Virus record (IMG/VR): IMGVR_UViG_3300030330_006573
Coordinates: 115,986 to 179,985 of that record
DNA: 64,000 nucleotides
Source: a virus
Taxonomy: Duplodnaviria; Caudoviricetes
Strand: one strand, 5' to 3'
The stretch's first letter is position 1. Every line of letters starts with the position of its first letter. Both the position numbers and the translations under genes were made by a program. Positions 21,171 through 51,673 of this stretch are shown piece by piece. The notes under the pieces are model-generated. The model saw only the letters and a program-made list of their open reading frames with translations, was not told the origin of the DNA and made no database searches.

Positions 21171-23591
21171 ATGAATAAAAGTAATTTCACTCCTAGGGTT
21201 CAAAGAATAATAGCTCTTTCAAAAAGAATAGCTGATTCTTTAAATTCCCAAGAAATAGATCTTCATCATTTGATTTTTTCAGTTCTTGATTCAAACCAAT
21301 CAATAATAAATAATTTCTTCGATGATATATCCATATCGCTTGATGAGTTTAAAGGCATAGTTTTCAATTCTATTGACGGAGACTTTTTCACTTCCCCATC
21401 TTCGGATAAAGAGGAGTTAGACTTTTCTACAGAGTATCAAAAAGTTTTTAAAATGTGCATTAATTTTGCAGATGAGCTGGATCATGATTATGTTGGTGTT
21501 GAGCATGTTTTCTATACCTTGCTTATATATGAAAAATCCCCACTACCTTCTTTGCTTAGTACTTTTTACGTAGATATAGAAAGCTCTAAAGAAAAATTTA
21601 GAAACTTTTTTATTACGGGTGAGTGGGAGGAGTCTAGATTACGGAAAACATATGAAGGCAAAAAGTCCAAGGTTGATGAAAAAATAGAGTCAGGCGCACT
21701 TCAATCTTTTTGCAAAAACTACAATGAAATGGCTTCTCAGGGTAAATTTGACAAAGTGCTTTGTAAAGATACTGACATTGAAAAAATGTCTGAAATCTTA
21801 TGTAGAAGAAACAAGAACAATCCTATTTTAGTTGGTCTCCCAGGGACAGGTAAAACTTCTCTCGTTGAGGGTCTCGCTCAAAATATAGTTAACAACACAT
21901 GCACTGACTTCTTAGCAAATAAAACTATTTATGAAGTCGATTTAGCCGCTTTAATTGCTGGCACTAAATATAGAGGTCAATTTGAAGAAAGGTTAAAAAA
22001 ACTTATTGAAGAAGTTTCAAGCTCTCCAAACATAATTCTTTTTATTGACGAGATTCATACTATTATAGGAGCTGGAGCAACAGAAGGAAGTATGGATGCT
22101 GCTAATATCCTAAAACCAGCCTTAGCAAGAGGTCAAATAAAATGTATTGGAGCCACTACTCCTAAAGAATACAAAAAGTATATACTAAAAGATGCAGCTC
22201 TAGAGAGAAGGTTTCAAGAAATAAAAGTAAACCAACCTTCAACTACTGAAACTCTAAAAATTCTAGAAGGCATAATCTCTCAATATGAAAAATTTCATCA
22301 TGTTATATATAGAAAAAATGCAGTTAAATTAGCTGTTGAGCTTTCTGTTAGATACATGACTGACAGGCAGCTTCCAGATAAAGCAATAGATATTATTGAT
22401 CAAGCTGGAGCAAAAGTAAAAATGCGCAGTTTTAGTAGACCTCTTGAAGCTCAAAAGATAGAGAAGCAAATAGAAAGACTAATGGAGGATGAAGATAAAA
22501 GTCAACACCAAAAAACTAAATATCAAAAAAAACAAGACTCCTTAATAAAAAGTTATAAAACTGTATTAAATAACTGGGCAGAATCATATAAACAAAAAAA
22601 ATTTTATGTTACTCAAGATGATATTTTCAAAGTTGTCTCTTCTAAAACTGGAATACCAGTTGGTAATTTGTCAAAAGATGACTCTGATATTTTATTAAAC
22701 TTAAAAAATAATTTATCAAAAGATGTTTTATTTCAAGATCAAGCTCTTGATTCTATATATAATTCTATCGTAAGATCCAAGAGTGGATTGTCTCAAACTA
22801 CAAAACCTATAGGCTCCTTTCTCCTTCTAGGAAAAAGTGGAGTAGGCAAGACATATATGGCAAAACGTTTAGCTAATCATTTTTTTGGAAGCGAAGATAA
22901 TTTAATTCATGTGGACATGTCCGAATTTTCAGAAAAAATAAACATATCAAGATTAATAGGTTCATCGCCTGGATATGTTGGCTACGATGAAGGCGGTCAA
23001 TTGACAGACCAAATAAAGAACAAACCATATTCAGTTGTTTTGTTTGATGAGATAGAGAAAGCTCATCCAGATGTAGTTAATATACTGCTTCACTTGCTAG
23101 ATGAAGGTAGATTAACAGACAATTTTGGAAGAATTTCTGATTTCACTAATAGTATTATTATTATGACGGGCAATATTGGCTCCGATATACTCGATAAGGG
23201 ATCTGGAATAGGATTTGCGAGTGTGGACTCAAAAAATCAATACAAAGAAAAGATTATTGACTTATCTAAAAAAACTTTCAGTCCAGAATTTGTGAACAGA
23301 ATAGATGAAGTTATCGTGTTTAATAATTTTTCCTTGGATGAAATTAAATTCTTAGTAAATGAAGAAATTTCTAAACTAAAAAGGTTGCTTAAGAGCCAAA
23401 AAAGTATTAAGTTAAATGTAGAAAGCGACGTTATCGAGTCTATTTCAAATCATGTTTTCAATCTTAAAATGGGGGCTAGACCAATAAAAAGAATTATACA
23501 AAAAAATATTGAAAATAAGGTTTCACAGTTTATTATAAAGAATAAAAAAGGAGAAGTTTCAATAAAAATTTCAGATATTAATTATGAGTAA
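21171..23591 (+). CDS. clpC: ClpC/ClpA-type double AAA+ unfoldase with ClpP-docking loop
   Basis: Clp N-repeats, KNNPILVGLPGTGKT, FIDEIH, LPDKAID, GKSGVGKT, GSSPGYVGY, GIGF loop, short middle coiled coil. Confidence 0.92.
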   Translation: MNKSNFTPRVQRIIALSKRIADSLNSQEIDLHHLIFSVLDSNQSIINNFFDDISISLDEFKGIVFNSIDGDFFTSPSSDKEELDFSTEYQKVFKMCINFADELDHDYVGVEHVFYTLLIYEKSPLPSLLSTFYVDIESSKEKFRNFFITGEWEESRLRKTYEGKKSKVDEKIESGALQSFCKNYNEMASQGKFDKVLCKDTDIEKMSEILCRRNKNNPILVGLPGTGKTSLVEGLAQNIVNNTCTDFLANKTIYEVDLAALIAGTKYRGQFEERLKKLIEEVSSSPNIILFIDEIHTIIGAGATEGSMDAANILKPALARGQIKCIGATTPKEYKKYILKDAALERRFQEIKVNQPSTTETLKILEGIISQYEKFHHVIYRKNAVKLAVELSVRYMTDRQLPDKAIDIIDQAGAKVKMRSFSRPLEAQKIEKQIERLMEDEDKSQHQKTKYQKKQDSLIKSYKTVLNNWAESYKQKKFYVTQDDIFKVVSSKTGIPVGNLSKDDSDILLNLKNNLSKDVLFQDQALDSIYNSIVRSKSGLSQTTKPIGSFLLLGKSGVGKTYMAKRLANHFFGSEDNLIHVDMSEFSEKINISRLIGSSPGYVGYDEGGQLTDQIKNKPYSVVLFDEIEKAHPDVVNILLHLLDEGRLTDNFGRISDFTNSIIIMTGNIGSDILDKGSGIGFASVDSKNQYKEKIIDLSKKTFSPEFVNRIDEVIVFNNFSLDEIKFLVNEEISKLKRLLKSQKSIKLNVESDVIESISNHVFNLKMGARPIKRIIQKNIENKVSQFIIKNKKGEVSIKISDINYE

Positions 23592-24126
23592 ATTTAAATT
23601 AGTTTTTGCAGGGGAAAACATTATTTCTTTTGATGAAGTTGAAGACAATACTGTTAGGGAATTTTTTAAAGAGTTTAATAGTTTCGATGAGCTGTCTGAC
23701 TTCATGTCTAGTAGCAGTATTGCTTTAAATGGCAACTTTAAGTATGCAGTAAGACATACTGAAGATAATTATTTAAAAGAGCTTTTTATAGTTCTTAAAA
23801 ACAACCCTCTGCCAAAACAATACATATTCGACACCAAAGAAGAAGCTCTAGAGTTTAAAGAGGTTCAAGGACTGAGAGACTCAGTTCACCTTTTACCCGA
23901 AGACAAAAAAGATATAATTAAAAAATTCTTTGAGAGTGATGATCTTGATTTTCCTGGCTTTAAAAAAATAAAAGAAAACTATAATAAGGAATTAGAGAAA
24001 GCTGGTGGTGCAAAATGTACCTCTTGTGCGAAAAATAATTTGATGAGAAAATATCAAGATATTGTTATTGATGCATTAAGTGATTCTCCTCAAAATGTCT
24101 TTAGCTCTTCTGAAAAAACTAAGTAA
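23584..24126 (+). CDS. Hypothetical protein with a CxxC motif
   Basis: ORF coupled to clpC; GAKCTSCA. Confidence 0.7.
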   Translation: MSKFKLVFAGENIISFDEVEDNTVREFFKEFNSFDELSDFMSSSSIALNGNFKYAVRHTEDNYLKELFIVLKNNPLPKQYIFDTKEEALEFKEVQGLRDSVHLLPEDKKDIIKKFFESDDLDFPGFKKIKENYNKELEKAGGAKCTSCAKNNLMRKYQDIVIDALSDSPQNVFSSSEKTK

Positions 24127-24138
24127 CAATTTAAAATT

Positions 24139-24762
24139 ATGTCTATACAACTATACAAACCAAATCAAAAAAACGCAGGTGCAGCATTCACCTTTTCTAT
24201 AGGTTCAAATAAGAATAATAGCTTGCCAGCTTTCTACATGAGCGCCATATCCCAACATTCTTGGGATTCTGATAAAAAGATTGGATCCTTTGCTGGGAAT
24301 GCAAAAGACCCAGATAAAACAGTTAACGTCAAGCTTAGTGAGTTTGAGTGCGGAGAAGTAATTAGTGCTATCAGAAATAGGTATGATTACTCTACTTTTC
24401 ATTCTTTTGACAATAACAACACTACGATCAAATTTAGCCCTTGGGATAAAGATGTTAAAATTTCTAAATACGATCCAGAGTCAAAAGGCTTTAAAGATTC
24501 TAAGATAAAGGTTCCAGCATTTGGAGTTTCTATTTCCAAAGGCAAAGGGTCTACCTTTAAAATAGGTATGGATCCTGGAGAAGTAGAGGTTTTTGTAAAA
24601 CTTCTTGAGCGTTTTATAGAACTTTTCGTTGAAGAAAAGATTAATATTCAAAAAGCTCTTTCTAAGAAATCTCAGCAAAACAAACCTTCTTCTAAATCTT
24701 CAAAAGAAGAAAAGGTAGAAGAGGTTGAAGAAGAGGAGGATTTTGAGGACGTCCCATTCTAA
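24139..24762 (+). CDS. Putative single-stranded DNA-binding protein
   Basis: Beta-rich core and acidic tail ending EEEEDFEDVPF, like the SSB C-terminal tip. Confidence 0.55.
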   Translation: MSIQLYKPNQKNAGAAFTFSIGSNKNNSLPAFYMSAISQHSWDSDKKIGSFAGNAKDPDKTVNVKLSEFECGEVISAIRNRYDYSTFHSFDNNNTTIKFSPWDKDVKISKYDPESKGFKDSKIKVPAFGVSISKGKGSTFKIGMDPGEVEVFVKLLERFIELFVEEKINIQKALSKKSQQNKPSSKSSKEEKVEEVEEEEDFEDVPF

Positions 24763-24776
24763 GGAAAATAAAAATA

Positions 24777-26684
24777 ATGTCTAAAAAAAAAATACTATAT
24801 CATAGTAACTTTTCTAGAATTTTAAGTGGTTTTGGTAAAAATTCCAAAAATATTCTAAAACACTTATCTTCTACTGGAAAGTATGAAATAGTTGAATTTG
24901 CAAATGGAGTATCAAAAGGTCATGCAGACCTAAAAACTTTGCCTTGGCATGCAGAAGGAGGTTTGCCTTCAGACCAAGAATCGATTAATAAAATCAACAG
25001 AGACCCCAATTTAGGCAGATCAGCATCTTATGGGGCTCTGAGGATAGATGATGTAATAAAAAAAGAAAAACCAGATATTTATTTAGGTGTCGAAGATATA
25101 TGGGGGCTTTCTGGTTATACAAAAAAACCTTGGTGGAATAAAATTAACTGCATGGTATGGACTACTCTAGACAGTCTGCCTATTTTACCAGATGCGATAA
25201 AGTGTGCTAAGAAGATAAAGCATTATTATGTATGGTCTTCTTTTGCTGAAAAAGCATTGCACGAGGAAGGTCACGATCATGTCAAGACACTTCATGGTGC
25301 CGTTGATGAATCAAGTTTCTACAAGCTAGATCATGAAGATAGGGAAGCTTTAAGGGAAAAATATAATCTAGGAGATAGCTTTGTAATAGGTTTTGTATTT
25401 AGAAATCAGCTAAGGAAAAGTGTTCCCAACTTGCTCGAAGGCTTTAAGCTATTTAAATCTAAAAACCCAGATTCAAATGCTAAACTTTTATTACATACAA
25501 ATTGGTCAGAGGGCTGGGAAATACCCAGATTAATAAAAGAAAAAAACTTAGAGCCTTCCGATATACTTTGTACTTACTACTGTAAAAATTGTAATCAATA
25601 TCAAATAAAGCCATTTTCTTCTCAAAACTTAGATTGTCCGTATTGTGGATCTAAGAAATCTTGTAATACAGTTAATATAAAAGACGGAGTTAATGATTCT
25701 CAATTGAATGAGATATACAATTTAATGGATGTGTATTGTCATCCTTTTACCAGTGGAGGTCAAGAAATTCCTCTTCAAGAAGCAAAGCTTTGCGAGCTTA
25801 TTACATTAACAACTAATTATTCTTGCGGATTGGAATCTTGCTCAAAAGAATCTGGAGGTTTACCGCTTGATTGGTCAGAATACAGAGAGCCAGGAACACA
25901 GTTTATAAAAGCATCTACTTGCCCTATCAGCATTCTCGATGGACTTTCTAATGTTTATCGCATGGATTTGTTAGAAAAGTCGTCTATGGGCAAGAAAGCT
26001 CGACAATATGTGATAGACAACTATTCCGTTAAAGTTATAGGTTCTAAAATTGAAGAGATTATTGATTCAATGCCATCTATCTCTGATTATAATTTTGATT
26101 TTAAAAAAGAACGTAGGGCTCCTGAGTACAATCCGCCAGATATTGAATCCAACTCTGACTGGTTAATAGATTTGTATAAAAACATATTGAAGGTTGATCT
26201 TGACCATACCGATGAAGGCCATCAGTATTGGATGAAAACACTTGAAAATGGAGGTAATAGAGCTGGAGTTCTAGATTACTTCAGACAAGTCGCTCAGAAA
26301 GAAAATTTAGAAATAGATAAGAAAAAATCTATTGACTTTAATAAAGTTATAGAAAATGATGGGGCAAAAAAAGCTTTATTCGTTTTAAAAGAGTCTGCCG
26401 AAGATATTTTACTTTCCACAAGCCTCTTGAAATCGTTCAAAGATATTCATCCTGATTATGATATTTTCTTTGCTTGTGATGAGATTTATCACCCAATGAT
26501 ACTTTCAAACCCCTACATATACAAAGTTTTACCATATGATGCAAAGATGGAAAATGAATTTTTAATGGTTGCGGGATCTTCAAGTAAGCCGTATTTCGAT
26601 TACTACTGCAACCTAGGTATTTTGACCCAAAGAAATATTAATTATCACGGCATAAGCAATTTCGCACTTGATTTGTATGAATAA
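24777..26684 (+). CDS. GT4 glycosyltransferase with Zn-ribbon insert, DUF4214-like segment and C-terminal GT9 N-lobe
   Basis: SGFG, RNQLRK, CKNC..CPYC, GGQEIPLQEA, EGHQYW, EDILLSTSLLKS..NPYI. Confidence 0.8.
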   Translation: MSKKKILYHSNFSRILSGFGKNSKNILKHLSSTGKYEIVEFANGVSKGHADLKTLPWHAEGGLPSDQESINKINRDPNLGRSASYGALRIDDVIKKEKPDIYLGVEDIWGLSGYTKKPWWNKINCMVWTTLDSLPILPDAIKCAKKIKHYYVWSSFAEKALHEEGHDHVKTLHGAVDESSFYKLDHEDREALREKYNLGDSFVIGFVFRNQLRKSVPNLLEGFKLFKSKNPDSNAKLLLHTNWSEGWEIPRLIKEKNLEPSDILCTYYCKNCNQYQIKPFSSQNLDCPYCGSKKSCNTVNIKDGVNDSQLNEIYNLMDVYCHPFTSGGQEIPLQEAKLCELITLTTNYSCGLESCSKESGGLPLDWSEYREPGTQFIKASTCPISILDGLSNVYRMDLLEKSSMGKKARQYVIDNYSVKVIGSKIEEIIDSMPSISDYNFDFKKERRAPEYNPPDIESNSDWLIDLYKNILKVDLDHTDEGHQYWMKTLENGGNRAGVLDYFRQVAQKENLEIDKKKSIDFNKVIENDGAKKALFVLKESAEDILLSTSLLKSFKDIHPDYDIFFACDEIYHPMILSNPYIYKVLPYDAKMENEFLMVAGSSSKPYFDYYCNLGILTQRNINYHGISNFALDLYE

Positions 26685-28729: not shown

Positions 28730-29533
28730 GTGAAAAGAAAAATATTAATAATGGGACTACCTGGAGCAGGTAAAACTACCTTAGCTGAAAAGCTAGTTCC
28801 TAAACTTAACGCCGCTTGGTTTAATGCTGATGCAGTAAGACAGGATATTTATTCCGAACTAGGATTTGAACCTGAAGATCGGTTGAAACATGCCACAAGG
28901 ATGGGTAAGCTTTGTGATTGGAGTAAAATGGGGGGATGCTATGTCATTGCAGATTTCATTTGCCCAACAAACGAGACGCGAAAAGCTTTCAACCCAGATT
29001 TTATAGTATGGATCAACAGAATCGAAAAAGGTAGGTTTGAAGACACTAACAAACTTTTTGAAAAACCAGATAATCACGATATAGAATTGAACGAAGGTAC
29101 TCCTGATGAGTGGTGCGAAATGGTTATTGAAAAACTTAATGAAACAGAAGCTTGGAATAATCAAGCTCCCACCGCATTACTAATAGGTAGATATCAACCA
29201 TTCCATATTGGACATAAAAATCTAGTAGCTGAAGCTATAAGGAGGACTGGCCAATGCTGTATCGCCATTAGAGATGTCGGCGGAATAGACGATAGCAATC
29301 CTTATGATTTTGAGAGAGTAAAAAAAGAAATATACTCTACATGCGTAGAATTTGGAAACAAAATAAAAGTAGTAGAACTTCCAAACATTACGGATGTATT
29401 CTATGGAAGAGGGGTTGGTTACAACATTGAACAATTAGAATTAAGCAAAGATCTTCAAGAAATTTCTGCCACAAAAATTAGAGAAGGTAAAATAGATCAA
29501 GAAGGCAATTTGTTAGGCAAAAGACCTGAATAA
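28730..29533 (+). CDS. APS-kinase (CysC)-like kinase fused to a HIGH nucleotidyltransferase
   Basis: GLPGAGKTT, NADAVR, GF..EDR; C-terminal GRYQPFHIGH and ISATKIR. Confidence 0.8.
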   Translation: MKRKILIMGLPGAGKTTLAEKLVPKLNAAWFNADAVRQDIYSELGFEPEDRLKHATRMGKLCDWSKMGGCYVIADFICPTNETRKAFNPDFIVWINRIEKGRFEDTNKLFEKPDNHDIELNEGTPDEWCEMVIEKLNETEAWNNQAPTALLIGRYQPFHIGHKNLVAEAIRRTGQCCIAIRDVGGIDDSNPYDFERVKKEIYSTCVEFGNKIKVVELPNITDVFYGRGVGYNIEQLELSKDLQEISATKIREGKIDQEGNLLGKRPE

Positions 29534-29534
29534 A

Positions 29535-30071
29535 ATGAATCTTTTATTCAATACTAAAACTTATTTGGTAGGGCATATGCAATACCTAAGTGGCAGAAAT
29601 TGGAGGGAAGAAGTTGCAGAGAAACTATCTCCTCTTGGAATTACATGTTTTGATCCTTACAAAAAACCCTTTGTTAAGGATGTTGAGGAGGACGAAGAGT
29701 CAAGAGAGCAAATGAACGCTTGGATGAACGAAGAAAGATATGACAAAGTTACTGAAAAAATGAAAATCATAAGGTCTTATGATTTAAATTTAGTAGATCG
29801 TAGTGACTTCATCGTAGCTCACCTTGTTCCTGATGTAGCCAGTTGGGGCAGTGCCGAAGAGTTAGTCACGGCAGTTAGAATGAAAAAACCAATCTTCATA
29901 AGTATGGAAGGGGGTAAATCTAAAACCCCCTTATGGATGCTTGGAATGCTCCCTCACAAATATATTTATAATAGTCTTGACGAAATCTTAAATATGCTGT
30001 ATGCTATCGATAATGGTAAAAAACAAATAGACTCCGATAGATGGAGACTACTAAGAAAGGAATATCGATGA
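29535..30071 (+). CDS. Nucleoside 2-deoxyribosyltransferase-like protein
   Basis: YLVGHM..WR..FDP...DL..V.RSD...GSAEE...KP. Confidence 0.7.
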   Translation: MNLLFNTKTYLVGHMQYLSGRNWREEVAEKLSPLGITCFDPYKKPFVKDVEEDEESREQMNAWMNEERYDKVTEKMKIIRSYDLNLVDRSDFIVAHLVPDVASWGSAEELVTAVRMKKPIFISMEGGKSKTPLWMLGMLPHKYIYNSLDEILNMLYAIDNGKKQIDSDRWRLLRKEYR

Positions 30072-38410: not shown

Positions 38411-39459
38411 TGAAAAAGAAAAAGAAAGTAAATAGAGGTGTGCAATACAAGTTTAGGAGGCAAAAATTTGATTTCGATCAATATTGGAACATTAATTATA
38501 CAGAAAGATATAAAGATGGAAGCGAAAAAGATTTCAAAACATTTATAAGAGCTAACTCTTATGATTCTGCAAAAAAAGTCTTAATTTCAAGAATACAAGA
38601 AGAAGATCCTGATATAAAAGTTAAAGCTATTCAAGGATTTATGTTTCATGGCAATTATAAAATACATAAAAACAGAAGGTTGACATTTGAAAATTGGGAG
38701 CAAATCAAGAAAGCTTCCTTCCCTAATTACAATAATACTTTATTCAAGAAAGAAATTGCAAGAAAAGAAGGTTACTCAAACCGCTTTAATAAAACTAACA
38801 TGGATCACATGCGCTCAATAGGCTTTAAGTCTGGCGCTGATAATTGGTCTTATCAAAATCGTAAAGGAATTTACTTGCCTGTAGAAGAGCGCAGGGGCAT
38901 GATATATAAAGGCAAGTGGGTTAAATGGGATGAGGATGAAATGCAAAAAACAAAAGAGCAAATAATACAAGCTCTTGAATTGCATAAAAATAACAAACTT
39001 AAGACGGCAAAATATCTTAAAATTTCTCGTAATGCATTATATAGCATGATGTCTAGAATAGCATCAAAGGAATGGTGGCATGAGAATTATCCATATATTC
39101 GTCCAGCCCCACCTCCTATTCCTACTGAAATTAGATCAGAACTTCAAAAGAAAGCTATGAGAAAGAGAATGGATGAAGGTTATGTCCCATTTAGTCACAT
39201 GACTGAAGCTGACTATAAAAAAAGAGTTGAAAATATTAGAAAATCTAAGAAAGAAAAAAGAGAAAAATTTTATAATGAAATAATCCCTAAAATAAAGAAA
39301 GCTCTACCAAAATTTGGTAATAGCAGAAAAGATACTGCCGAGTACCTAGGATTTACTCGTTGCTATTTTGAAAAAATCTTAGTTAGAACTAAAAAACTTT
39401 ATAATATAGACTGGAGTAGTGAATATCCAACAAAGTACAGTAGACCCCAAAATTCTTGA
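38410..39459 (+). CDS. 'X-domain' protein with two Fis-type HTH domains (start probably 38410)
   Basis: DQYWNINYT..GFMFH..FPN..LFK; IIQALELHKNNKLKTAKYLKISRNALY; IKKALPKFGNSRKDTAEYLGFTR. Confidence 0.8.
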   Translation: MKKKKKVNRGVQYKFRRQKFDFDQYWNINYTERYKDGSEKDFKTFIRANSYDSAKKVLISRIQEEDPDIKVKAIQGFMFHGNYKIHKNRRLTFENWEQIKKASFPNYNNTLFKKEIARKEGYSNRFNKTNMDHMRSIGFKSGADNWSYQNRKGIYLPVEERRGMIYKGKWVKWDEDEMQKTKEQIIQALELHKNNKLKTAKYLKISRNALYSMMSRIASKEWWHENYPYIRPAPPPIPTEIRSELQKKAMRKRMDEGYVPFSHMTEADYKKRVENIRKSKKEKREKFYNEIIPKIKKALPKFGNSRKDTAEYLGFTRCYFEKILVRTKKLYNIDWSSEYPTKYSRPQNS

Positions 39460-41068
39460 AGAATTTGATAATTTCCTTGGACTCTACCAAGATGATTTGG
39501 TAAAGATTATAGGCAAGTACAGGGGCAAGAGTCACCCGCTAGACTCAGATGAGCTTTTGTCTGAGGTTAATTTATATTTAATAAAAAATAAATATAAAAT
39601 AATTGAGTATATAGATTCAACAAAAGGAATAGCAAATTTTGATTACAACTCCTTTAAGCATACTGCTTTTGTATATTGTAGAAATTTAATAAAGTGGACT
39701 TATTTGACACTAACATCTAAAGATAATAAGGCTGGCAAATGGTACTCTCAAAGAATTGATAAAGTATACCATACAGAAGATGGCGAAAAAACTTCTTTAG
39801 ATATCGCATTAGAAACTAATGGGGTTGAGTCTGAAGTTGATGACATTAAAATTGGAGACAAATATAAATATATTTTAGATGAAATCAAATCAAAACTAAC
39901 TAATGCTGAGTTAAATATTTTTATAGGTCTTCAAGAAGGAAAAATGCAAAAAGATATAGCTGAAGAAGCTGGTGTTACAAGACAAGCTATAGATTTGACT
40001 TATCAAAAAATAATTAAAAAAGTAAAATCTATTGGAGCATTAAAAGATGGTATATCTAGCAAAGTTTTAAATGATGATCTTTATGATAAGGTTTCCGAAG
40101 GTCAGAATGCAATAGAAGATTTTTTTGATCATGGTGAACATGTGTATTTTAGCGACTCAAATAAAAATGAATTATTGGATATTTTATTAAAAAATCCAGG
40201 TAAATTCACAGGAGAATATATTAGTAAAAATTTCTTTGATGGAAAGTTTTCAGAATTTCAAATAATTAATCAAGCAAGACATCTTACCTCACCATCAGGG
40301 CTAGGCATTTTCTTGAAAAGAAAAAAACAAAAATACAAAAAAGCATTTACTGATGAGCAGGAGCTTGAAATTATAAAATTAACAAAAAAAGGTCTTTCTT
40401 CAAAAGAAATAGCAAACAAATTCGGTGTTTTTATTAACTCGATTAATGCAAAACAAACCCACTTTTACAAAACTGGTAGGATTCTAGAAACATCCAACAT
40501 GAGAGCTAAGAGGTTGAGGCTTTTGAAGAGAGTTTTTAAAAGTAAACTTTTTGATTATAGAAGAGAAAAAATTGATGTTACTGACGACCAAAAAAGGAAA
40601 ATAATAGACTTTTTTAACATTGGAGCTGAAATTGTCAAATTGAATAGTAAAGATAAAAGCAAAAAAGAAATAAAGCAAATTTTATTAAAAAAATTTAAAT
40701 TTAAAGACTCTTCTGTTTTTATAAATCCAGATGAACTGAATCTAGTTATAGACAAGTTTATTAATTATGATTTCATGCCGTATCTTGTTAATAGATTAAA
40801 AATTCCACATAATGTCATACATGGTTATAGATGCCACTTTGTTTCCAAAGGATTAATTACTAAGTTTGAAAGACCCAAGGTTAAAAGTTATAAAAGGTAT
40901 GAATATTCCTACATCTTAAAAGCATTAAGGAATGGTTACAAATATAAGGAAATAGCTAATCATATTGATTTAGATATAAAATCTGTTAGGTCTATTTTAA
41001 TTCATTCTGTTAGAAAAAAAACTATTACAAGAAAAATGTATTTTGATTTTTTTAATAACGATGAATAA
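39419..41068 (+). CDS. sigma70-like factor with C-terminal multi-HTH extension
   Basis: Paralog of 37697 (DELLSEVNL, DGEKTS, GKMQKDIAEEAGVTRQAI); further HTHs GLSSKEIANKFG and GYKYKEIANHID. Confidence 0.8.
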   Translation: MNIQQSTVDPKILEEFDNFLGLYQDDLVKIIGKYRGKSHPLDSDELLSEVNLYLIKNKYKIIEYIDSTKGIANFDYNSFKHTAFVYCRNLIKWTYLTLTSKDNKAGKWYSQRIDKVYHTEDGEKTSLDIALETNGVESEVDDIKIGDKYKYILDEIKSKLTNAELNIFIGLQEGKMQKDIAEEAGVTRQAIDLTYQKIIKKVKSIGALKDGISSKVLNDDLYDKVSEGQNAIEDFFDHGEHVYFSDSNKNELLDILLKNPGKFTGEYISKNFFDGKFSEFQIINQARHLTSPSGLGIFLKRKKQKYKKAFTDEQELEIIKLTKKGLSSKEIANKFGVFINSINAKQTHFYKTGRILETSNMRAKRLRLLKRVFKSKLFDYRREKIDVTDDQKRKIIDFFNIGAEIVKLNSKDKSKKEIKQILLKKFKFKDSSVFINPDELNLVIDKFINYDFMPYLVNRLKIPHNVIHGYRCHFVSKGLITKFERPKVKSYKRYEYSYILKALRNGYKYKEIANHIDLDIKSVRSILIHSVRKKTITRKMYFDFFNNDE

Positions 41069-41124: not shown

Positions 41125-41488
41125 GGGGATGTACAGGATTCGACTAAGATTGGATTCTTATACTGCAAGTCGGAGATGCACTCGGCTTCGATAAAAAAGT
41201 GCAAATCGTTACATGGCAACAAGTCACGTATCAAAGCTTACTCGCCTCAAAGCGAGTCGCTTGCTTTAGCAGCGTAAATCTGCTACCTCTTACCTTTTGA
41301 CGCAGATATAAAGGATAAGGGGTCATTCATCTGCAAAACAGAAAAGGTTTACCTGTTAATAAACTGCAAATAATTGTAACAGGGAGTTGGATGTCAATAT
41401 CATAACTTGAAAAAAAATTGACTAAACTTGTAGAAGTATATGCTTGAAGATTTTTAGGACGCGGGTTCAATTCCCGCCATCTCCACCA
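41125..41488 (+). ncRNA. ssrA: tmRNA; predicted tag (A)GNKSRIKAYSPQSESLALAA at 41215-41277
   Basis: 5' GGGGATG..GGATTCGAC pairs with 3' CATCTCC-ACCA (G3:U pair); T-arm GCGGGTTCAATTCCCGC; tag ORF ends LALAA-stop. Confidence 0.95.
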
Positions 41489-41976: not shown

Positions 41977-42480
41977 TTGAATTTATATAACATAGCTAAG
42001 CACCCTAGTTCCCCAAACAGGGTTTACGGAGTTATTGAAATTCCAAAAGATACAAATGTCAAATATGAGTATCGCCCTGATTTAGAATCTTTTATTTATG
42101 ATAGAAGTCTAATTAGTGCTATGGTTTATCCAGCGAGTTATGGGTTTATACCTAGCACAAAAGCAGAGGACGGAGATGCTTTAGATTTATTGGTCTACAA
42201 TAATGCACCTATTGAAAGAGGTACTATCGTGGAGTGCCGTGTCATAGGTGTTTTAGATATGGAAGATGATGGAGAAAAAGATTGGAAAATATTAGGCACT
42301 CCAGTATCCCATGTTCGGCAATACAAAAATCTATCTGACATTGATCCTCAGTTCTTAAAAATATGTCAAAACTTCTTTTCTCATTACAAAGATTTAAATA
42401 ATAAATTAGTTGAAGTTAAAGATTGGCACGAGGCAGATTTTGCTAGAAAAATAGTTGAAGCAAATTATAATAAATTTTAA
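41977..42480 (+). CDS. ppa: Family I inorganic pyrophosphatase
   Basis: IEIP..KYEY, DR, YP..YGFIP.T..EDGDALD, DDGEKDWKI, FF.HYK.L. Confidence 0.95.
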   Translation: MNLYNIAKHPSSPNRVYGVIEIPKDTNVKYEYRPDLESFIYDRSLISAMVYPASYGFIPSTKAEDGDALDLLVYNNAPIERGTIVECRVIGVLDMEDDGEKDWKILGTPVSHVRQYKNLSDIDPQFLKICQNFFSHYKDLNNKLVEVKDWHEADFARKIVEANYNKF

Positions 42481-42481
42481 A

Positions 42482-42799
42482 ATGATTGACAAAGAATACT
42501 ATAGTTTTTATTTAACAAAACATCAAAATCCTAAATGTAGATTATTGCATTTTATAGGTCAGCTTTTTACACTTGCATTTGCTTTTTATGTTTTTTATGC
42601 ATGGCATTGGTATTTGATTCCTCTGATCCCATTTGTCGTTTATCCTTTTGCCTGGTCAGGGCATCGTATTTTTGAAAAAAACAAACCTCTGGCATTAGAA
42701 GGGGTAAAAGATGGAGGCAAGACCACACTAAAAGCTAAAGCTTGTGACTGGTTAATGTTTTTTGATATATTAAGAGGAAAACTCTCTATTTGGAAATGA
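42482..42799 (+). CDS. DUF962/Mpo1-like membrane protein
   Basis: YL.KHQNP.CR.LHFIG...YPFAW.GH.IFEKNKP. Confidence 0.8.
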   Translation: MIDKEYYSFYLTKHQNPKCRLLHFIGQLFTLAFAFYVFYAWHWYLIPLIPFVVYPFAWSGHRIFEKNKPLALEGVKDGGKTTLKAKACDWLMFFDILRGKLSIWK

Positions 42800-42895: not shown

Positions 42896-43264
42896 ATGGA
42901 ACACAATCATTTACTTGTTAATGCGACTTTTGAAAAAACTCCTTTTTCAAATACTGAATTCACAAAAGAATGGATTAGTGATTTAGTAGAAAAAATAGAT
43001 ATGCGAATTTTATATGCGCCTAGAGCAGTAAGGTGCGACAAAAATGGAAACGAAGGAGTTAGTGCTTTTTGCTTAATAACTACTAGTCATATTAGCTTGC
43101 ACTCCTGGGAGAAAACCAATCCAAACTTAGTTCAACTAGATGTGTATAGTTGTAAATTTTTTGACAAAGATTTAGTTCTTAATTTAATAAAAGATTTTTC
43201 TCCTTCATCTCTATCTTTTAAGTTTTTGGACAGATCAAATTTTGACAATGAATATACACTTTAG
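42896..43264 (+). CDS. speD: S-adenosylmethionine decarboxylase proenzyme-like
   Basis: GVSAFCLITTSHISLHSW..VQLDVYSCK.F. Confidence 0.8.
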   Translation: MEHNHLLVNATFEKTPFSNTEFTKEWISDLVEKIDMRILYAPRAVRCDKNGNEGVSAFCLITTSHISLHSWEKTNPNLVQLDVYSCKFFDKDLVLNLIKDFSPSSLSFKFLDRSNFDNEYTL

Positions 43265-44009
43265 GCATTATAGCGGAGCTATTAAAGAGTATGATTATTT
43301 ATTTTTTGAATGCATTGCAGAAGTATCATTAGATGAAGAAAATGATGCTCTTGAAAAAGGTTGGCTTCCTGATGATTATATAGATTACCCGACAAATAAA
43401 TCTAAGTCAGACTGGTATCAAGCTAGGCAAACAAGAATTAATCTGATTGATTTTTCAGAAACTAGAAGCACTAAAAAATGCAGAAAAAAATGTAAGGATA
43501 TAGTTGTTAAACCCGTTAAAGCAAAAGACATAGATATAGACATTGCAAAATGTATATTTGAGAAATATACAAAATATAGAGGTTTTAAACCTTGGAAAGT
43601 AGAGCCTTTATTAGTTACTGAAATTGATAGGAAATACTTTTTATTATATTATCTAGACGACAAGCCAATAGCCTTTACATTTCTTAGGGATGTTGGTAGT
43701 AATGGAATTTTTTCTACTCAATTTGCTTGGGATTATCAAAATCCCAAACTATATCTTGGCAAATATGCAAACCTTGCAGAGATAGATTATTGCATATCTA
43801 GAAATAAGAAATATTTATATTTAGGTGTTGGCTATGAAGAATGTTGCATTTATAAATCAGACTACAAAGGTTTTGAATTTTGGACGGGAGAAAAATGGTC
43901 TAGAGATATTGAGCATTACAAATGGCTATGCGAAAGAGATTCAAAAATAAAAAAGATTACTGATTTAGATAAAGTAAAAAAGTATGATGATGAACATTTT
44001 TTTGAATGA
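43248..44009 (+). CDS. Aminoacyl-tRNA-protein transferase-like (ATE/Bpt family)
   Basis: ALEKGW, RINL..F, F.KY..YR, WDY..PKL.LGKY..L.EI, YLYLG..Y..C..YK..Y. Confidence 0.72.
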   Translation: MNIHFRHYSGAIKEYDYLFFECIAEVSLDEENDALEKGWLPDDYIDYPTNKSKSDWYQARQTRINLIDFSETRSTKKCRKKCKDIVVKPVKAKDIDIDIAKCIFEKYTKYRGFKPWKVEPLLVTEIDRKYFLLYYLDDKPIAFTFLRDVGSNGIFSTQFAWDYQNPKLYLGKYANLAEIDYCISRNKKYLYLGVGYEECCIYKSDYKGFEFWTGEKWSRDIEHYKWLCERDSKIKKITDLDKVKKYDDEHFFE

Positions 44010-44455
44010 TTAAAGATTACATAGATTATGTCTCCCTAAAAAGAAAAGAATTAGGAGGTCATTCAATTTGCCCTTTCGCCAAACCCCTTCTTGATAAGAT
44101 TGAAATAATAGAATCTAATGATTTTTTTACTGATGCAATAAAATGTATTAATAATCAGACACATCCAGTGCTTTATCTTATATATGGAGACAAAAACAAA
44201 TATAACATCCAATGGCTCAAAAATTTTTGCGACTCTCATAAAAAATATGCAAGAGATAAAGATATTTGGCTCATTTGGGATCATCCCAATCAAATAAATA
44301 AAATAAATGGAATCAAAACTAGTAACGATAAATATGCAATACTATTTATACAACCCCTTTCTGAAATAAAAAAATACTCAAATTCTTTGCATAAAACAAA
44401 CTATTATAATTTTTGGAGTCAAGATTATTATTATGATGTTGTTAAAAATAGATAA
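44006..44455 (+). CDS. Hypothetical protein (DUF1415-like CPFA motif)
   Basis: ICPFAK, DHP, L.KTNYY..W. Confidence 0.6.
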   Translation: MIKDYIDYVSLKRKELGGHSICPFAKPLLDKIEIIESNDFFTDAIKCINNQTHPVLYLIYGDKNKYNIQWLKNFCDSHKKYARDKDIWLIWDHPNQINKINGIKTSNDKYAILFIQPLSEIKKYSNSLHKTNYYNFWSQDYYYDVVKNR

Positions 44456-44476: not shown

Positions 44477-45187
44477 ATGAATTATAATATGGAATTAGAT
44501 TTTAGCAATCAAATCAAAGCGAAGCATCTAGATGCCTTGACATATACTGAAACTCCTAATGTTTTCCTCAAGACTGCTAATAGCAATTTTAAGCATATGG
44601 ATATAAATGTTAATGCTTTATTGAATATATACCCACCAAAAAATTCAAGCTTAGAAACTAAAAAAGAACTTTCGCAAATAAAGAATTTTATGGAATCTAA
44701 TCATTCTAAAGAGTTTAAATCTAGTTTAAAAAAAATGGATGAAGATCCAGCCTTATTTGTAATAGATCATTATAAGAGCATGAGTGGAAGAAATATTCCA
44801 TCAGAAGCTTTAAAATTTATATCAGGTGGAGATGTTGAAGTTCTAGCTATGAAGTTAAAAATGCACTATAATAGACCAAGACCATATCAAATAGCAGAAC
44901 ATTATGGAATAAAATTAAATTATAATAAATCAATTCAAAAAGGCGCTGCCGATCATCCCTCATATCCTAGTGGTCATACTCTATCTGCATTTTTTACAGC
45001 TAAAGTTTTAGGTTTTATTGATCGTGAATTTTCAGTTCAATTAAATCAAAAAGCTCAAATGGTTGCAGATTCAAGAATAATGGAGGGTGTTCACTTTAAA
45101 AGTGATAATGATTTTTCTATATTTTTAGTTGATAAAGTCTTAATGCCAGCATTTTTAAAGGCTTATGACGGAAAAAGAAATACTTAA
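44477..45187 (+). CDS. PAP2/haloperoxidase-superfamily phosphatase
   Basis: K.HYNRPRP, PSYPSGH, SRIMEGVHFKSD; GTGTAA 9 nt upstream. Confidence 0.88.
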   Translation: MNYNMELDFSNQIKAKHLDALTYTETPNVFLKTANSNFKHMDINVNALLNIYPPKNSSLETKKELSQIKNFMESNHSKEFKSSLKKMDEDPALFVIDHYKSMSGRNIPSEALKFISGGDVEVLAMKLKMHYNRPRPYQIAEHYGIKLNYNKSIQKGAADHPSYPSGHTLSAFFTAKVLGFIDREFSVQLNQKAQMVADSRIMEGVHFKSDNDFSIFLVDKVLMPAFLKAYDGKRNT

Positions 45188-46996: not shown

Positions 46997-46998
46997 TA

Positions 46999-47925: not shown

Positions 47926-47953
47926 ATAATAATCCATAAAATCAAAAAATAAT

Positions 47954-48370
47954 ATGTCAGAAGATCAAAATTTAAATAATGGGGAAGTAATCGCATTTAT
48001 AACTTGCGATGATGTTTATGTTGATCCCGCAACAGGAAAACATAGTTTGCTTGGGATTTTTACTAATCTTAGAGGCAGAAACTTTCCTGTTCGTCATCCT
48101 AAAATGATATGGTATGTATCTTTGGGCGAAGTTCCTCAAGGCACTCATAACTTTAAAATTTACTTCGGAGTAATTCCTAGCGAAGAGCCTCCAGAATTAA
48201 TCATTGATAAAGAAATTACCTCAGAGGGCGCTCATAAAAAAATCAATATGATTAATGAAATAAAAGATTTAGTAATTGAAGAGTCAAATAGTTATTCAAT
48301 AATAATAGAAGTTGATGAAGATGTGCTTTTTGTCGATACTTTTGATGTACAACAAGTTGATGATGAATAA
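47954..48370 (+). CDS. DUF6941-like beta-sandwich protein
   Basis: CDDV..D..TGK.SLLGIF.....FP. Confidence 0.65.
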   Translation: MSEDQNLNNGEVIAFITCDDVYVDPATGKHSLLGIFTNLRGRNFPVRHPKMIWYVSLGEVPQGTHNFKIYFGVIPSEEPPELIIDKEITSEGAHKKINMINEIKDLVIEESNSYSIIIEVDEDVLFVDTFDVQQVDDE

Positions 48371-48565
48371 ATTATATAAAAATTGGTTTGTGCATAATGT
48401 CTTTGGACATTCAATCTCTGAATTATTTTATTGGGCTTTATTGCCATTCAATTCCCTACTTGCACACAGAGCATCTGTTTGGTTTCACGATGTAACTTGT
48501 CCAAAAAAATCTGACAATCGCAAATACTTACGTTCTTACGAAGGAAAAACTTTTTATAAAAAATA

Positions 48566-48850
48566 ATGAAAACATTACATAATACTAAAAACTGCAAGTA
48601 CAGAAGATTTCTTTATAAGAAATTAAAAAATGGTGATATTAGTGGCAAGTTTTATAAATTTGTTTGCAGAAGTCATCCTTATCGTCTTACAACTAGGAAT
48701 ATACAATTAATTGTAAATAAGATTCTTAGCAAAAATATGACAGAAGATAAAGCAATTCGTTTGTTGCAACAAGATACTAGTGAACTAAAGAGGCAACAAG
48801 ATTTGTACAAATCAAATGTAGAGTGCAGAAAGAAAATAGGTTGGAAATAA
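48566..48850 (+). CDS. Basic hypothetical protein
   Basis: ORF with TAATG coupling. Confidence 0.55.
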   Translation: MKTLHNTKNCKYRRFLYKKLKNGDISGKFYKFVCRSHPYRLTTRNIQLIVNKILSKNMTEDKAIRLLQQDTSELKRQQDLYKSNVECRKKIGWK

Positions 48851-48886
48851 ATTGAATACTTATTTTTAATATTTATTATTATATAA

Positions 48887-49306
48887 ATGGTAACTTTTAA
48901 AAATTTAAAATTTGAAAAGCATCATTGTATTGATGATGCTATAATTTCAAGACATAATTTTAAAAATGGATATTCTATTATTGTTCAAGCAAATAAAAGA
49001 TACCATGATGGTAAATCTTATATCCATAAATTTCAAGGGCATGAGCATCTTGAAATAAAAGGAAACAGAGATTATAAAGATAAAAAACTAATCAAAGAAA
49101 GTTATCAAGTCGTCCTTATTGATAAGAATGATAACATAATTGAGCTTGATGAATCTAGAAAACAAGTGCTTCAATTTGCTTCTGTTGAAGAAATAAATGA
49201 ACTACTAAAAATAATTGATAAAAAAGTTGAATCTTTTTTAAAAAATATTTATAATAAAAGAGAAAAGTATTTATTAGACTTGCTTGAACTTGAATATGAA
49301 AAATAA
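48887..49306 (+). CDS. Hypothetical protein
   Basis: ORF; TTGAAT lies 35 nt upstream. Confidence 0.65.
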   Translation: MVTFKNLKFEKHHCIDDAIISRHNFKNGYSIIVQANKRYHDGKSYIHKFQGHEHLEIKGNRDYKDKKLIKESYQVVLIDKNDNIIELDESRKQVLQFASVEEINELLKIIDKKVESFLKNIYNKREKYLLDLLELEYEK

Positions 49307-49609
49307 AGAAGAAGAAGATAAAATCAAAAAAGCAAAAGATAAAATTGCTTTTTTAAATAAAAAAGAAAATGTAAAAAAAAGAGAAGAAGATAAACAAAAA
49401 AAAATACAATCTAGAAAAAACATAAATAATATATAAAATATGAGCTTAGATGCAGACGATAATACAAAGTGGCTAGGATGGAGACTAGGCACTGCTATTG
49501 AAAGACAAACGGAAGAACTTGCAGAAGTTAAAGATGCTATTAAAAACCTTCAAAAAGTAATGGTTGAAATAAGCATCAAGTTGTCTGAAATAATTGACAA
49601 GGAATAATT

Positions 49610-50047
49610 TTGAGCGAAGAAAAAACATATGATGTATCTGTTTTTGTAGAGCAGTTGGCATCAATTAAAGTAAAAGCATCCTCTCAGAGAGATGCTGATG
49701 AAAAAATTAGAAGAGTTATTGACAATTACAATGACTTAGATAATGCGGATAAAAAAATTATTCCTTATTTACCTTTTGAAATATCTGAAGTTGAATACTG
49801 CTTTTATGATGTTATTGACGAAGGTGTTTTTCCACTTGCCAAAACAAAAGAGTCGTTTCAACCTACTTATAATTCTATAATTCAAGGTGGTGAAAATGAG
49901 TTGTTTAATCTCATGTCTCAGCACAAGGAACTTACCCAAGAAGTAGTCGATGAAATTAAATCAGAAGCATCTTCTGAAAAAGATGTATCAAATCCAGAAG
50001 AGTTTGTAAAGCTTAGGTCTGATGAAAAAAAATTAAAATTTAAATAA
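49610..50047 (+). CDS. Protein with DpnD/PcfM-like N-terminus
   Basis: TYDVSV.VEQ...IKVKASS..DA.EK. Confidence 0.55.
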   Translation: MSEEKTYDVSVFVEQLASIKVKASSQRDADEKIRRVIDNYNDLDNADKKIIPYLPFEISEVEYCFYDVIDEGVFPLAKTKESFQPTYNSIIQGGENELFNLMSQHKELTQEVVDEIKSEASSEKDVSNPEEFVKLRSDEKKLKFK

Positions 50048-50053
50048 ATATTT

Positions 50054-50287
50054 TTATCTATCTATTCTTTCAAATAATTTTATAATATCATTCCTTCTAT
50101 CTTCTAGAAGTCTTTGCGTTTGTTCCCACCTCTCGCTGTCTCTTGCTCCATTCCTTGCTAGAGATACTTCTTGCTCTCTAAGTTTTTCGCAAACTCTATC
50201 TATTCTAGCATTCTCTTTTTTCAAGAAAAAAGCTATCAAAGATAGAAGACCGCCAAAGGCAATCAATATTAATTCGTTAATCTCCAT
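50054..50287 (-). CDS. Single-TM coiled-coil protein, holin-like architecture
   Basis: N-terminal TM, charged coiled coil; GTGTAA 9 nt upstream on the minus strand. Confidence 0.65.
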   Translation of the reverse strand: MEINELILIAFGGLLSLIAFFLKKENARIDRVCEKLREQEVSLARNGARDSERWEQTQRLLEDRRNDIIKLFERIDR

Positions 50288-50309
50288 AATAAATATTTAC
50301 ACTTTTTTG

Positions 50310-50338
50310 TTGACATTTTGGCATTTATTTGAGAGAAT
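50310..50338 (+). promoter_or_regulatory. sigma70 promoter, leaderless
   Basis: TTGACA-17-GAGAAT-6-ATG(50345). Confidence 0.75.
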
Positions 50339-50344
50339 ATTTTC

Positions 50345-51424
50345 ATGGCAGAAGAAATCGATAGACTAGGATTGACTTGTATCAGCGAAGAGTTGAAGAA
50401 AAAGGATAAGGTAAAATATTCCTTTAAGACTATGACTCGCAGAGGCTTTAGAAACCTTTATACAAAAGAGGGAGAAAGTGTCGCAATCTCAGAACTTTCG
50501 CAGAGAATATTGCATAATGTTCGCGTAACTCGCTATATAATAAAGCATTGTAACAAGAATAATATTCCCCATTATCGTCTAAGCTCGGCAATCTTTCCAT
50601 TAATTACTGATAGTGAAACTAATGTAAGCCTAAATAGTTTACCCGACCATGCTCTAATACGTGAAGAATTAATATTTGCAGGTAAAATCGCAAAACATTT
50701 TGGAATATCTATTGGCTCTCACCCCGATCAATTCAACGTTCTTGCATCTGCAAATAAAGATGCAATAAATAGAACAATAAACGAATTGAATTTTCAAGCT
50801 AGTGTTCTTGACATGATGGGCTTGCCTCAAGATCATACTGCACCAATGAACATTCATATCAATGCACCATTGCCAAATATAGAGAATCAAGATGTGTCTG
50901 ATGAATCAAAAACTGATTCTGTTCTAAATCTAAAAATAGCTGAAGTCGCAGAATATTTTTATGACAATTTGATGAGATGCGATAGTGGAGTTATAAACAG
51001 ATTAACTATCGAGAACGAAGACAAAGGCGCATGGAATGTTGACAACATAATTAAATTTAGTGACTATATTTTTCAACAATTCAAATTTAATCTACCTGTT
51101 TGTTATGACAATTTACATGATGTCTGCAATCCCTCGGAGGTGCAGAATATTATATGGCAAGCTGAAAGATGCGCATATACATGGGCAGAAGAATGCTCTC
51201 CTGTCTTTCATTGGTCTGAGGGAGTAAATACTCCAAGTAAAGATATAAAAGGAAATAGAGGTGGAAATAAAAGTAAAGCACCTCGCACCCATGCCGAATA
51301 TTATTCATACAAATATGCACCTCCTATTATTGCCATCAGACCCGATCAAGCAGTTAAATGGGAATGCGAAGTAAAGGGGAAGGATTTAGCAATTAAACTT
51401 TTGAGAGAAAATTTTCAAGATTAA
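50345..51424 (+). CDS. uvsE: UV-damage endonuclease (UvsE/UVDE)
   Basis: RLG..C, YRLSS.IFP, HPDQF.VL, NIH, RLTIEN.D, YD.LH, FHWS, H, E.K.KD.A. Confidence 0.92.
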   Translation: MAEEIDRLGLTCISEELKKKDKVKYSFKTMTRRGFRNLYTKEGESVAISELSQRILHNVRVTRYIIKHCNKNNIPHYRLSSAIFPLITDSETNVSLNSLPDHALIREELIFAGKIAKHFGISIGSHPDQFNVLASANKDAINRTINELNFQASVLDMMGLPQDHTAPMNIHINAPLPNIENQDVSDESKTDSVLNLKIAEVAEYFYDNLMRCDSGVINRLTIENEDKGAWNVDNIIKFSDYIFQQFKFNLPVCYDNLHDVCNPSEVQNIIWQAERCAYTWAEECSPVFHWSEGVNTPSKDIKGNRGGNKSKAPRTHAEYYSYKYAPPIIAIRPDQAVKWECEVKGKDLAIKLLRENFQD

Positions 51425-51431
51425 ACAATAA

Positions 51432-51507
51432 GCTATCTTAGCTCAGTTGGTAGAGCAGTTGCCTTGTAAGCAACAGGTCATCGGTTCAAGTCCGATAGAT
51501 AGCTCCA
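51432..51507 (+). tRNA. tRNA-Thr(UGU)
   Basis: Cloverleaf; anticodon arm GTTGC-CTTGTAA-GCAAC; encoded CCA. Confidence 0.95.
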
Positions 51508-51509
51508 TT

Positions 51510-51586
51510 GCGGGAGTAGCTCAGTTGGATAGAGCATCTGTCTTCTAAACAGAATGTCGTGAGTTCAAGTCTCACCTCTCGCGCCA
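51510..51586 (+). tRNA. tRNA-Arg(UCU)
   Basis: TCTGT-CTTCTAA-ACAGA; encoded CCA. Confidence 0.95.
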
Positions 51587-51587
51587 T

Positions 51588-51673
51588 GCGGATGTGGCGG
51601 AATTGGTAGACGCTACAGACTTAAAATCTGTTGCCCGTAGGGCGTGTGGGTTCAATTCCCACCATCCGCACCA
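51588..51673 (+). tRNA. tRNA-Leu(UAA)
   Basis: ACAGA-CTTAAAA-TCTGT, long variable arm, encoded CCA. Confidence 0.95.

Follow-up and report, generated by a model that had tools for sequence, protein, structure and literature searches.

Transfer-messenger RNA (tmRNA) genes are carried by ~2.3% of phage genomes, and tagging of proteins for degradation or recycling has already been proposed as their role (PMC9004378); they are also known from huge phages (PMC7162821), and phage G has both a tmRNA and ClpXP (PMC12484599). Phage ATPases of the Clp/Hsp100 type have been grouped as phrog_4871. For phage genes resembling the aminoacyl-tRNA transferases ATE1 and Bpt, no paper was found in literature searches. 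Genes of all three kinds lie in the stretch of DNA considered here, called the window: the final 64 kb (bases 115,986-179,985) of a 179,985-bp IMG/VR virus record, labelled G000, with a CheckV completeness of 100% and a GC content of 0.34. The + strand holds almost every gene of the window, among them those for a ClpC-type unfoldase, a tmRNA and an ATE-like transferase; three tRNA genes accompany them. The original prediction, made from the sequence of the window, joined these into one tag-and-degrade circuit: the tmRNA would write C-terminal degrons, the ATE-like enzyme would write N-terminal degrons from the phage's own Arg and Leu tRNAs, and ClpC would feed the products to host ClpP, clearing host or defence proteins. 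A real phage circuit that writes both N- and C-degrons would, if true, be a new way of host takeover.

A different reading is on balance the probable one: ClpC, the tmRNA and a mobile three-gene cassette that includes the ATE-like gene are independent, host-dependent modules, accompanied by codon-matching tRNAs, and do not form one circuit. The distribution of the genes carries this reading. The virus records compared are labelled G001-G012, and L-numbers denote individual loci or contigs in the comparison. ClpC, tmRNA and ATE-like gene occur together in G000 (180 kb, 100% complete) and in G011, G006 and G002 (57-73 kb, 42-53%). G001 (73 kb, 54%) has ClpC and the ATE-like gene, with no tmRNA found; G012 (99 kb, 73%) has ClpC and a tmRNA and no ATE-like gene. 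ClpC stands without either partner in G008 and G010 (99-101 kb, 73%) and in the complete genome G009 (163 kb, 100%), which has no tmRNA of either type. Conversely, the complete genomes G003 and G004 (221 and 206 kb, 100%) have the ATE-like gene and neither ClpC nor tmRNA. Absence calls for tmRNA in G009, G008, G010, G003 and G004 come from searches with both one-piece and permuted models; the ATE-like gene was sought in G009, G008, G010 and G012 with the ATE family profile as well. The three genes are inherited separately, tmRNA and ATE-like gene both having a patchy distribution. Independent occurrence in relatives is what the original prediction itself had named as counting against a joint circuit. 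In the window, ClpC and the tmRNA are 17.5 kb apart.

The close relatives are contigs from marine metagenomes, many of them from TARA and many of 150-217 kb; the ClpC-carrying clade consists of marine phages of roughly 160-200 kb. One homologue of orf149, a cassette gene described below, is named from a Crocinitomicaceae metagenome-assembled genome (MAG), the sole hint at a host.

The ATE-like gene (43248-44009, + strand) encodes a protein of 253 amino acids (aa), a minimal homologue of the aminoacyl-tRNA transferases of the ATE1/Bpt fold. Its family assignment was among the points that the original prediction got right: Pfam ATE_C scores 37.6 bits against a cut-off of 25, and yeast ATE1 is matched with an E-value of 1.7e-4 from the single sequence and 1.4e-8 from the family profile. 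In the AlphaFold model (pLDDT 95.3) the bilobed ATE1 fold covers the full length of the protein: human ATE1 superimposes with Z 17.4 over 225 aligned aa, spanning model residues 1-253, and KlAte1 from K. lactis with Z 15.7; the Foldseek E-value for the ATE1 match is 2.1e-10. After ATE1 come MprF and other aminoacyl-phosphatidylglycerol synthases, FemX and the L/F-transferase, which match the model over fewer residues. Every one of these best fold matches uses aminoacyl-tRNA, which sets the protein apart from plain acetyl-CoA GNATs; a non-tRNA GNAT here was one of the outcomes that the original prediction had named as refuting it.

Residues S156, W161, E178 and Y202-K203 align to S255, W260, E/D277 and Y303-K304 of ATE1 in a hidden Markov model alignment with the yeast protein. 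Of these, Y202 is kept in 60 of 70 family members, K203 in 69, W161 in 49 and E178 in 50. KlAte1 holds the Arg side chain through E277, a position at which Bpt has Gln, and its K304 is the catalytic-type lysine (PMC9351520). The conservation of E178 and K203 therefore favours a basic donor amino acid, Arg rather than Leu. With ATE1 and Bpt, then, the phage protein shares the bilobed GNAT-type fold, the ATE_C domain, the YK catalytic pair, the Trp and the acidic residue of the Arg pocket.

The differences are as marked. Relative to ATE1 the protein is half the size and lacks both a sequence match to ATE_N and the Cys4 metal site: ATE_C is matched by 54 of 70 family members, ATE_N by none, and the family consensus has no conserved Cys. 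A profile of the N-lobe matched no PDB sequence, ATE1 included. Relative to Bpt, it falls far under the equivalog cut-offs, the best NCBIfam model for bacterial arginyltransferases giving 47.2 bits against a cut-off of 170, aligned over aa 19-217. Two arginines of the N-lobe, R60 and R63, are invariant in the family. No basic residue follows the invariant G38-W39 anywhere in the family alignment, where these positions hold hydrophobic residues or Pro; from motif order we take them, presumably, to be the counterpart of the GFRRSG arginines. The family comprises at least 258 clusters at 50% identity, almost all from viral or metagenomic DNA; only seven loci were found in 185,579 genomes, all of them in MAGs. 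The protein has no PHROG, and a tblastn search of 50,697 GenBank phage records gave no match.

The ATE-like gene has partners of its own. Upstream, and overlapping its start by 17 nt, is the end of a gene for a 122-aa pyruvoyl-type decarboxylase of the AdoMet_dc family (42896-43264, + strand; Pfam AdoMet_dc 48.1 bits; NCBIfam SAM_DCase_Bsu 37 bits, cut-off 75.65). Downstream, joined to the ATE-like stop by an ATGA overlap, is orf149 (44006-44455, + strand), a member of phrog_10325 that resembles DUF1415/DUF6875 proteins, its neighbours in the Atlas. The trio is intact in G001, G002, G006 and G011, and in G002 it has stayed together at ~17 kb from the tmRNA, as against 1.4 kb in the window. Taking distant lineages into account, genes of the orf149 and ATE-like kinds are neighbours in three arrangements: with the ATE-like gene first, with the orf149-like gene first (L024-L027, L029, L030), and as a convergent pair (L069, L070). 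Identities in the distant lineages are about 27-37% for the ATE proteins and about 21-30% for the orf149 proteins, the latter figure being 21-35% over the three arrangements. Since the genes have stayed paired while their order changed, a functional link between them is well supported. By profile comparison, orf201 and orf101, the partners in other ATE subgroups, have no similarity to orf149.

Sequence families say little of orf149: neither Pfam nor NCBIfam gave a match, and DUF6875 is reached below its cut-off in 4 of 23 members. The structural model (pLDDT 92.8) had no Foldseek match at E<=0.001, but among 48,161 chains compared, AglA (9ub3_A), a protein of sandwich fold, was the sole one with Z>=5 (Z 7.1, root-mean-square deviation 3.4, 134 of 149 aa aligned; the next chain scored 4.4). 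A cysteine of orf149, C22, is invariant in 23 sequences, within the motif GG.xICPFA, at a position compatible with the AglA aligned ranges, a correspondence that is not at residue level. Whether the model makes orf149 an AglA-like thiolate-haem enzyme is about an even call.

The comparison with AglA is suggestive for what it says of the whole cassette. AglA is a Cys-ligated haem enzyme (Cys44) that N-hydroxylates the guanidine of AMPn-Arg in argolaphos synthesis, and AMPn-Arg is made ahead of it with ArgRS, tRNA and the Arg-tRNA-dependent enzyme AglC (PMC12866846). In Streptomyces monomycini, AglC and AglA thus constitute an Arg-tRNA-dependent transferase and a small Cys-ligated haem enzyme acting on an arginyl-amine; the phage pairs an ATE-fold enzyme, whose pocket is of the Arg type, with a protein for which AglA is the sole outstanding fold match. 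By this analogy the ATE-like enzyme would most likely take a basic amino acid, probably Arg, off its charged tRNA and place it on an amine produced by the decarboxylase, and orf149 would then modify the arginyl-amine, in the order of AglC and AglA. The phage cassette differs from the argolaphos genes in that its flanks look unrelated, with no phosphonate genes seen adjoining, and in that a pyruvoyl decarboxylase would be the source of the amine. Because the ATE-like gene has conserved partners of its own, the decarboxylase and the AglA-like protein, a small-molecule acceptor is more likely for it than the writing of protein N-degrons.

An alternative is that the enzyme is a true N-terminal aminoacyl transferase of proteins, independent of ClpC, whose products go to host ClpS-ClpAP or are altered in function. 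ATE1 is after all the top fold match, at full length; the catalytic Lys and the Glu of the Arg pocket are conserved, and so are the two N-lobe arginines; and the bacterial arginyltransferase models do align, over aa 19-217. Against it, the ATE_N match and the Cys4 site are missing, and the residues after G38-W39 are never basic. The gene is tightly coupled to the decarboxylase and AglA-like genes, and the surroundings of relatives whose ATE_C scores are similar clearly have nothing to do with proteins, one such gene being placed between an MraY-like gene and a Mur ligase gene. A protein acceptor is, on these grounds, unlikely.

Several neighbourhoods of cassette-related genes are recorded here for their own sake. 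In a Magasanikiibacteriota MAG (L074 4714-7967), an ATE_C-like gene scoring 27 bits lies between genes for an MraY-like glycosyltransferase and a Mur ligase, and by this context some of the proteins that score with ATE_C may work on the cell wall as FemX does. The distant metagenome contig L065 (3-5430), with AdoMet_dc and spermidine synthase two genes away from its ATE_C gene, has the order ribonucleotide reductase, ClpP, AdoMet_dc, spermidine synthase, orf201, ATE_C, AAT-like, and orf201-like genes precede the ATE-like gene throughout the subgroup L003-L017. The cassette of the window is flanked, at 41977-42799 and 44477-45187, by genes for an inorganic pyrophosphatase (162.7 bits), an Mpo1-like protein and a PAP2 phosphatase; the pyrophosphatase and Mpo1-like genes are conserved in G006 and G011.

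The second module, ClpC, is best understood beside ClpC/MecB of B. subtilis (PDB 3j3t, 7abr), a class I Clp/Hsp100 protein. The phage gene (21171-23591, + strand) encodes a double-ring AAA+ unfoldase of 806 aa with the same domain order: N-domain, D1, short M-domain, D2. Its Pfam domains are AAA_2, AAA_lid_9, Clp_N and ClpB_D2-small, and it matches phrog_4871 with 765 bits. The B. subtilis protein is its best PDB match (E 1.4e-192, aa 5-791), and the alignment of the two, over aa 5-784 of the B. subtilis protein, includes the linker (M) region, which ClpA lacks. The Walker A and B motifs and the pore loops of both rings are intact (GLPGTGKT, ILFIDE, KYRGQFE, GKSGVGKT, VVLFDE, PGYVGY), and these ATPase motifs are kept in 12 of 12 related phage ClpC proteins. 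The same is true of the loop by which such unfoldases dock on ClpP. The GIGF sequence that the original prediction had pointed out is present at aa 679-682 (23205-23216, + strand), aligned to VGF of B. subtilis ClpC, and the hydrophobic-G-F pattern [IVLF]-G-F recurs in all 12 relatives as IGF, VGF, LGF or FGF.

From B. subtilis ClpC the phage protein departs in several respects. Repeat 1 of the N-domain is degenerate: Pfam Clp_N scores 27.2 bits (cut-off 20.7) and detects repeat 2 only. The Thr-Glu of the first phospho-arginine site aligns to Leu-His. The phage genome has no ClpP, ClpS or MecA-like gene; the original prediction had remarked that clpP, clpS and smpB were missing from the window, and the statement extends to the complete 180-kb record, in which none of the three was found. 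ClpP was not found in the complete clade genomes G000 and G009, nor in four fragments. Finally, the gene has a fixed place in a replication block, followed by a coupled gene of its own.

That block begins with a DnaQ-like exonuclease (17974-18615, + strand; Pfam RNase_T 52 bits) and DNA polymerase III alpha, DnaE (18597-21170, + strand; Pfam DNA_pol3_alpha 214.6 bits), both syntenic in the clade loci. ClpC starts one base after the DnaE stop, and it directly follows DnaE in 11 of 11 related loci. Next comes orf180 (23584-24126, + strand), in an 8-nt overlap with the ClpC stop, and then, two genes after ClpC, a gene for a 207-aa protein resembling single-strand DNA-binding protein (SSB; 24139-24762, + strand). 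The order exonuclease, DnaE, ClpC, orf180, SSB-like is syntenic, the downstream genes being present wherever the locus reaches far enough. Identities to the window proteins across the clade loci are 58-89% for DnaE and 45-84% for ClpC. ClpC is thus a clade-wide fixed gene of the replication block. In GenBank phage records most of the best full-length matches to ClpC are unannotated and below 46% identity, and some resemble host DNA.

Since the ClpP loop is conserved in phages that have no ClpP, docking on host ClpP is its best explanation; the phage protein most likely docks there, or works as an unfoldase, in the replication phase. Its N-domain is well conserved inside the clade, although Pfam sees repeat 2 only. 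A domain divergent from Pfam and yet conserved among these phages argues that ClpC probably picks phage-specific substrates; the choice would be made through this N-domain, perhaps also through the coupled orf180. The latter has no match in Pfam, PHROG or NCBIfam; it is a fast-evolving gene that nevertheless keeps its place after ClpC in relatives, with identities of 24-78%, and it could encode an adaptor or regulator of ClpC. The C-terminal region of orf180 is conserved and has a CT.CA motif. The 207-aa protein gave no match in family searches either, and its gene is syntenic in relatives; its acidic C-terminal tip (...EEEDFEDVPF), the one feature to go by, makes it probably a phage single-strand DNA-binding protein.

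Strict synteny with replication genes in 11 loci, the abutment on DnaE and the SSB-like gene nearby would also suit a ClpP-independent ClpC, a chaperone whose task would be remodelling in the phage replisome or in assembly. The position of the gene may reflect the timing of expression only, and the presence of the ClpP-docking tripeptide in every relative is hard to explain without ClpP binding; a purely chaperone role accordingly carries a low probability.

For the third module, the tmRNA, the closest described systems are the phage tmRNAs of OM43 phage Melnitz and the pelagimyophages (PMC9004378), of phage G (PMC12484599) and of the huge phages (PMC7162821). In these, as here, a complete tmRNA is found in a lytic-looking large phage without smpB. 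The present one differs in being of the one-piece and not the two-piece type, in its long 20-aa tag with the canonical LALAA end, and in that no riboswitch was detected in the Rfam scan. It lies at 41125-41488 (+ strand) and matches RF00023 at full length (model positions 1-374) with 147.7 bits, the gathering score being 47; the acceptor stem has the G3:U70 pair. Set by the resume codon of the Rfam consensus, the tag frame occupies 41215-41277 (+ strand) and reads GNKSRIKAYSPQSESLALAA followed by TAA, so that the tag is (A)GNKSRIKAYSPQSESLALAA, with its stop in the usual hairpin loop. ARAGORN prints a tag from a different, wrong frame for this tmRNA. All the differences between the window, G011 and G006 are synonymous in the Rfam-aligned frame and non-synonymous in the ARAGORN frame, which identifies the LALAA tag as the real one and, judged from the sequences, places its frame under purifying selection; the LALAA degron of the original prediction was therefore read correctly.

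Homologues of the tmRNA, scoring 118-139 bits, are present in G002, G006, G011 and G012. The clade tags (including those at L035 and L056-L058) are 20-33 aa long, and four of five end in LALAA; that of G002 ends in EMVA. The tmRNA would be charged by host AlaRS, delivered by host SmpB and used to rescue stalled ribosomes, if it behaves as its family does, and the LALAA tag would be a normal route into host Clp proteases. SmpB, not found in the 180-kb genome, would have to come from the host, as for other tmRNA phages. Most likely the tmRNA is a stand-alone accessory gene. Directly upstream of it is a gene for a 549-aa protein (39419-41068) with several segments like helix-turn-helix domains or sigma region 4 (GerE, Sigma70_r4_2; phrog_323, phrog_351). 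The motif AGTGTAW, found 25 nt ahead of the tmRNA, shows no enrichment: the window has 10 sites where 15.5 are expected.

It might be supposed that one half of the original circuit is real, and that stalled products tagged by the tmRNA are degraded by phage ClpC together with ClpP of the host, so that amino acids and ribosomes are recycled, while the cassette is unrelated. The constrained tag frame, the LALAA ends and the conserved docking loop speak for such an arrangement; G012 has just this pair, ClpC and tmRNA, without the ATE-like gene; and recycling is the role already in print for phage tmRNAs. The pair is, however, easily broken: ClpC occurs without tmRNA in G009, G008 and G010, G002 has the tag end EMVA, and in the window the two genes are far apart. 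In the best-studied bacteria, moreover, ClpX or ClpA is the main reader of the ssrA tag. Such a link between tmRNA and ClpC seems quite improbable.

The tRNA genes complete the inventory of the supposed circuit. ARAGORN and Rfam find tRNA-Thr(UGU), tRNA-Arg(UCU) and tRNA-Leu(UAA) at 51432-51673 (+ strand); the Arg and Leu genes named by the original prediction are at 51510-51673, and the Thr gene is an addition to its list. These are the only tRNAs of the 180-kb genome. In the phage, TTA accounts for 40% of the codons for Leu, AGA for 63% of those for Arg and ACA for 38% of those for Thr, so that the three tRNAs read the top Leu and Arg codons and the second commonest Thr codon of the phage, and would supply them. 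Codon matching is the usual explanation for phage tRNAs, and a match to frequent codons leaves no need for a dedicated donor role. The array of the closest relative, G011 (L060 1265-1586), is Thr-Cys-Leu, with Cys in place of Arg. The proposal that the phage carries Leu and Arg tRNAs as donors is set aside for these reasons.

ClpS is required for the delivery of N-degrons to ClpA or ClpC. With no ClpS found in G000, genes that are non-adjacent and separately inherited even in complete genomes, an ATE-like family without ATE_N (0 of 70) or Cys4 and at 47 against 170 bits on the NCBIfam arginyltransferase model, conserved non-proteolytic partners for the ATE-like gene, and tRNAs explained by codon use and exchanged, Arg for Cys, in G011, the complete circuit is very unlikely, even though all its parts are present and functional-looking.

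A number of observations weigh, nevertheless, against three independent modules and a metabolic cassette. All three genes are held by G000, G011, G006 and G002, the four that are closest among those with sequence enough; and most of the relatives compared are fragments. The tRNA array of G001 lies 20 nt upstream of the cassette, where in the window the distance is 7.4 kb. R60 and R63 of the ATE-like protein could bind an acidic protein N-terminus, a task that falls to the R80 pocket in KlAte1. Neither Pfam nor PDB profile searches gave a sequence link between orf149 and AglA (YqcI/YcgG), and the match is of Z 7.1 only. At L065, ClpP is three genes from the ATE_C gene. From a much larger phage, unrelated to this one, comes the 110-kb fragment G005, which holds genes for an unfoldase, ClpP and a tmRNA along with a short ATE_C gene (L030 9503-10426 and 17292-17912; L033; L037 1294-1595): the ClpP is a true one (219 bits) and the tmRNA is of the two-piece type (RF01850, 84.6 bits). 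Some functional convergence on proteolysis is possible from this gene set. Very large phages accumulate many such genes, however, so the G005 set shows compatibility, not coupling.

The unfoldase of G005 is ClpA-like, without an M-domain; its ClpP adjoins a radical SAM/SPASM gene, and it has a DUF6875-like gene and an ATE_C gene of 141 aa. Elsewhere in the window are genes of nucleotide metabolism, for a protein of the IMPDH/GMP-reductase family (16837-17814), an APS-kinase-like/cytidylyltransferase-like fusion (28730-29533) and a nucleoside 2-deoxyribosyltransferase-like protein (29535-30071).

Separate inheritance of ClpC, tmRNA and cassette is the reading preferred here. The fuller picture, in which a cassette frequent among ocean phages builds a modified arginyl-amine metabolite from charged tRNA while an independent ClpC commandeers host ClpP, is put forward tentatively, as a possibility. 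That a clade of phages should fix a ClpP-dockable ClpC in its replication module, while having no ClpP, is worth study, and so is the cassette with its largely viral family of minimal ATE1-fold transferases. No paper describing the cassette was found; it may be a tRNA-dependent metabolite pathway outside the PHROGs and, if the proposed chemistry is true, viruses would be the origin of a pathway that makes small molecules by way of tRNA.

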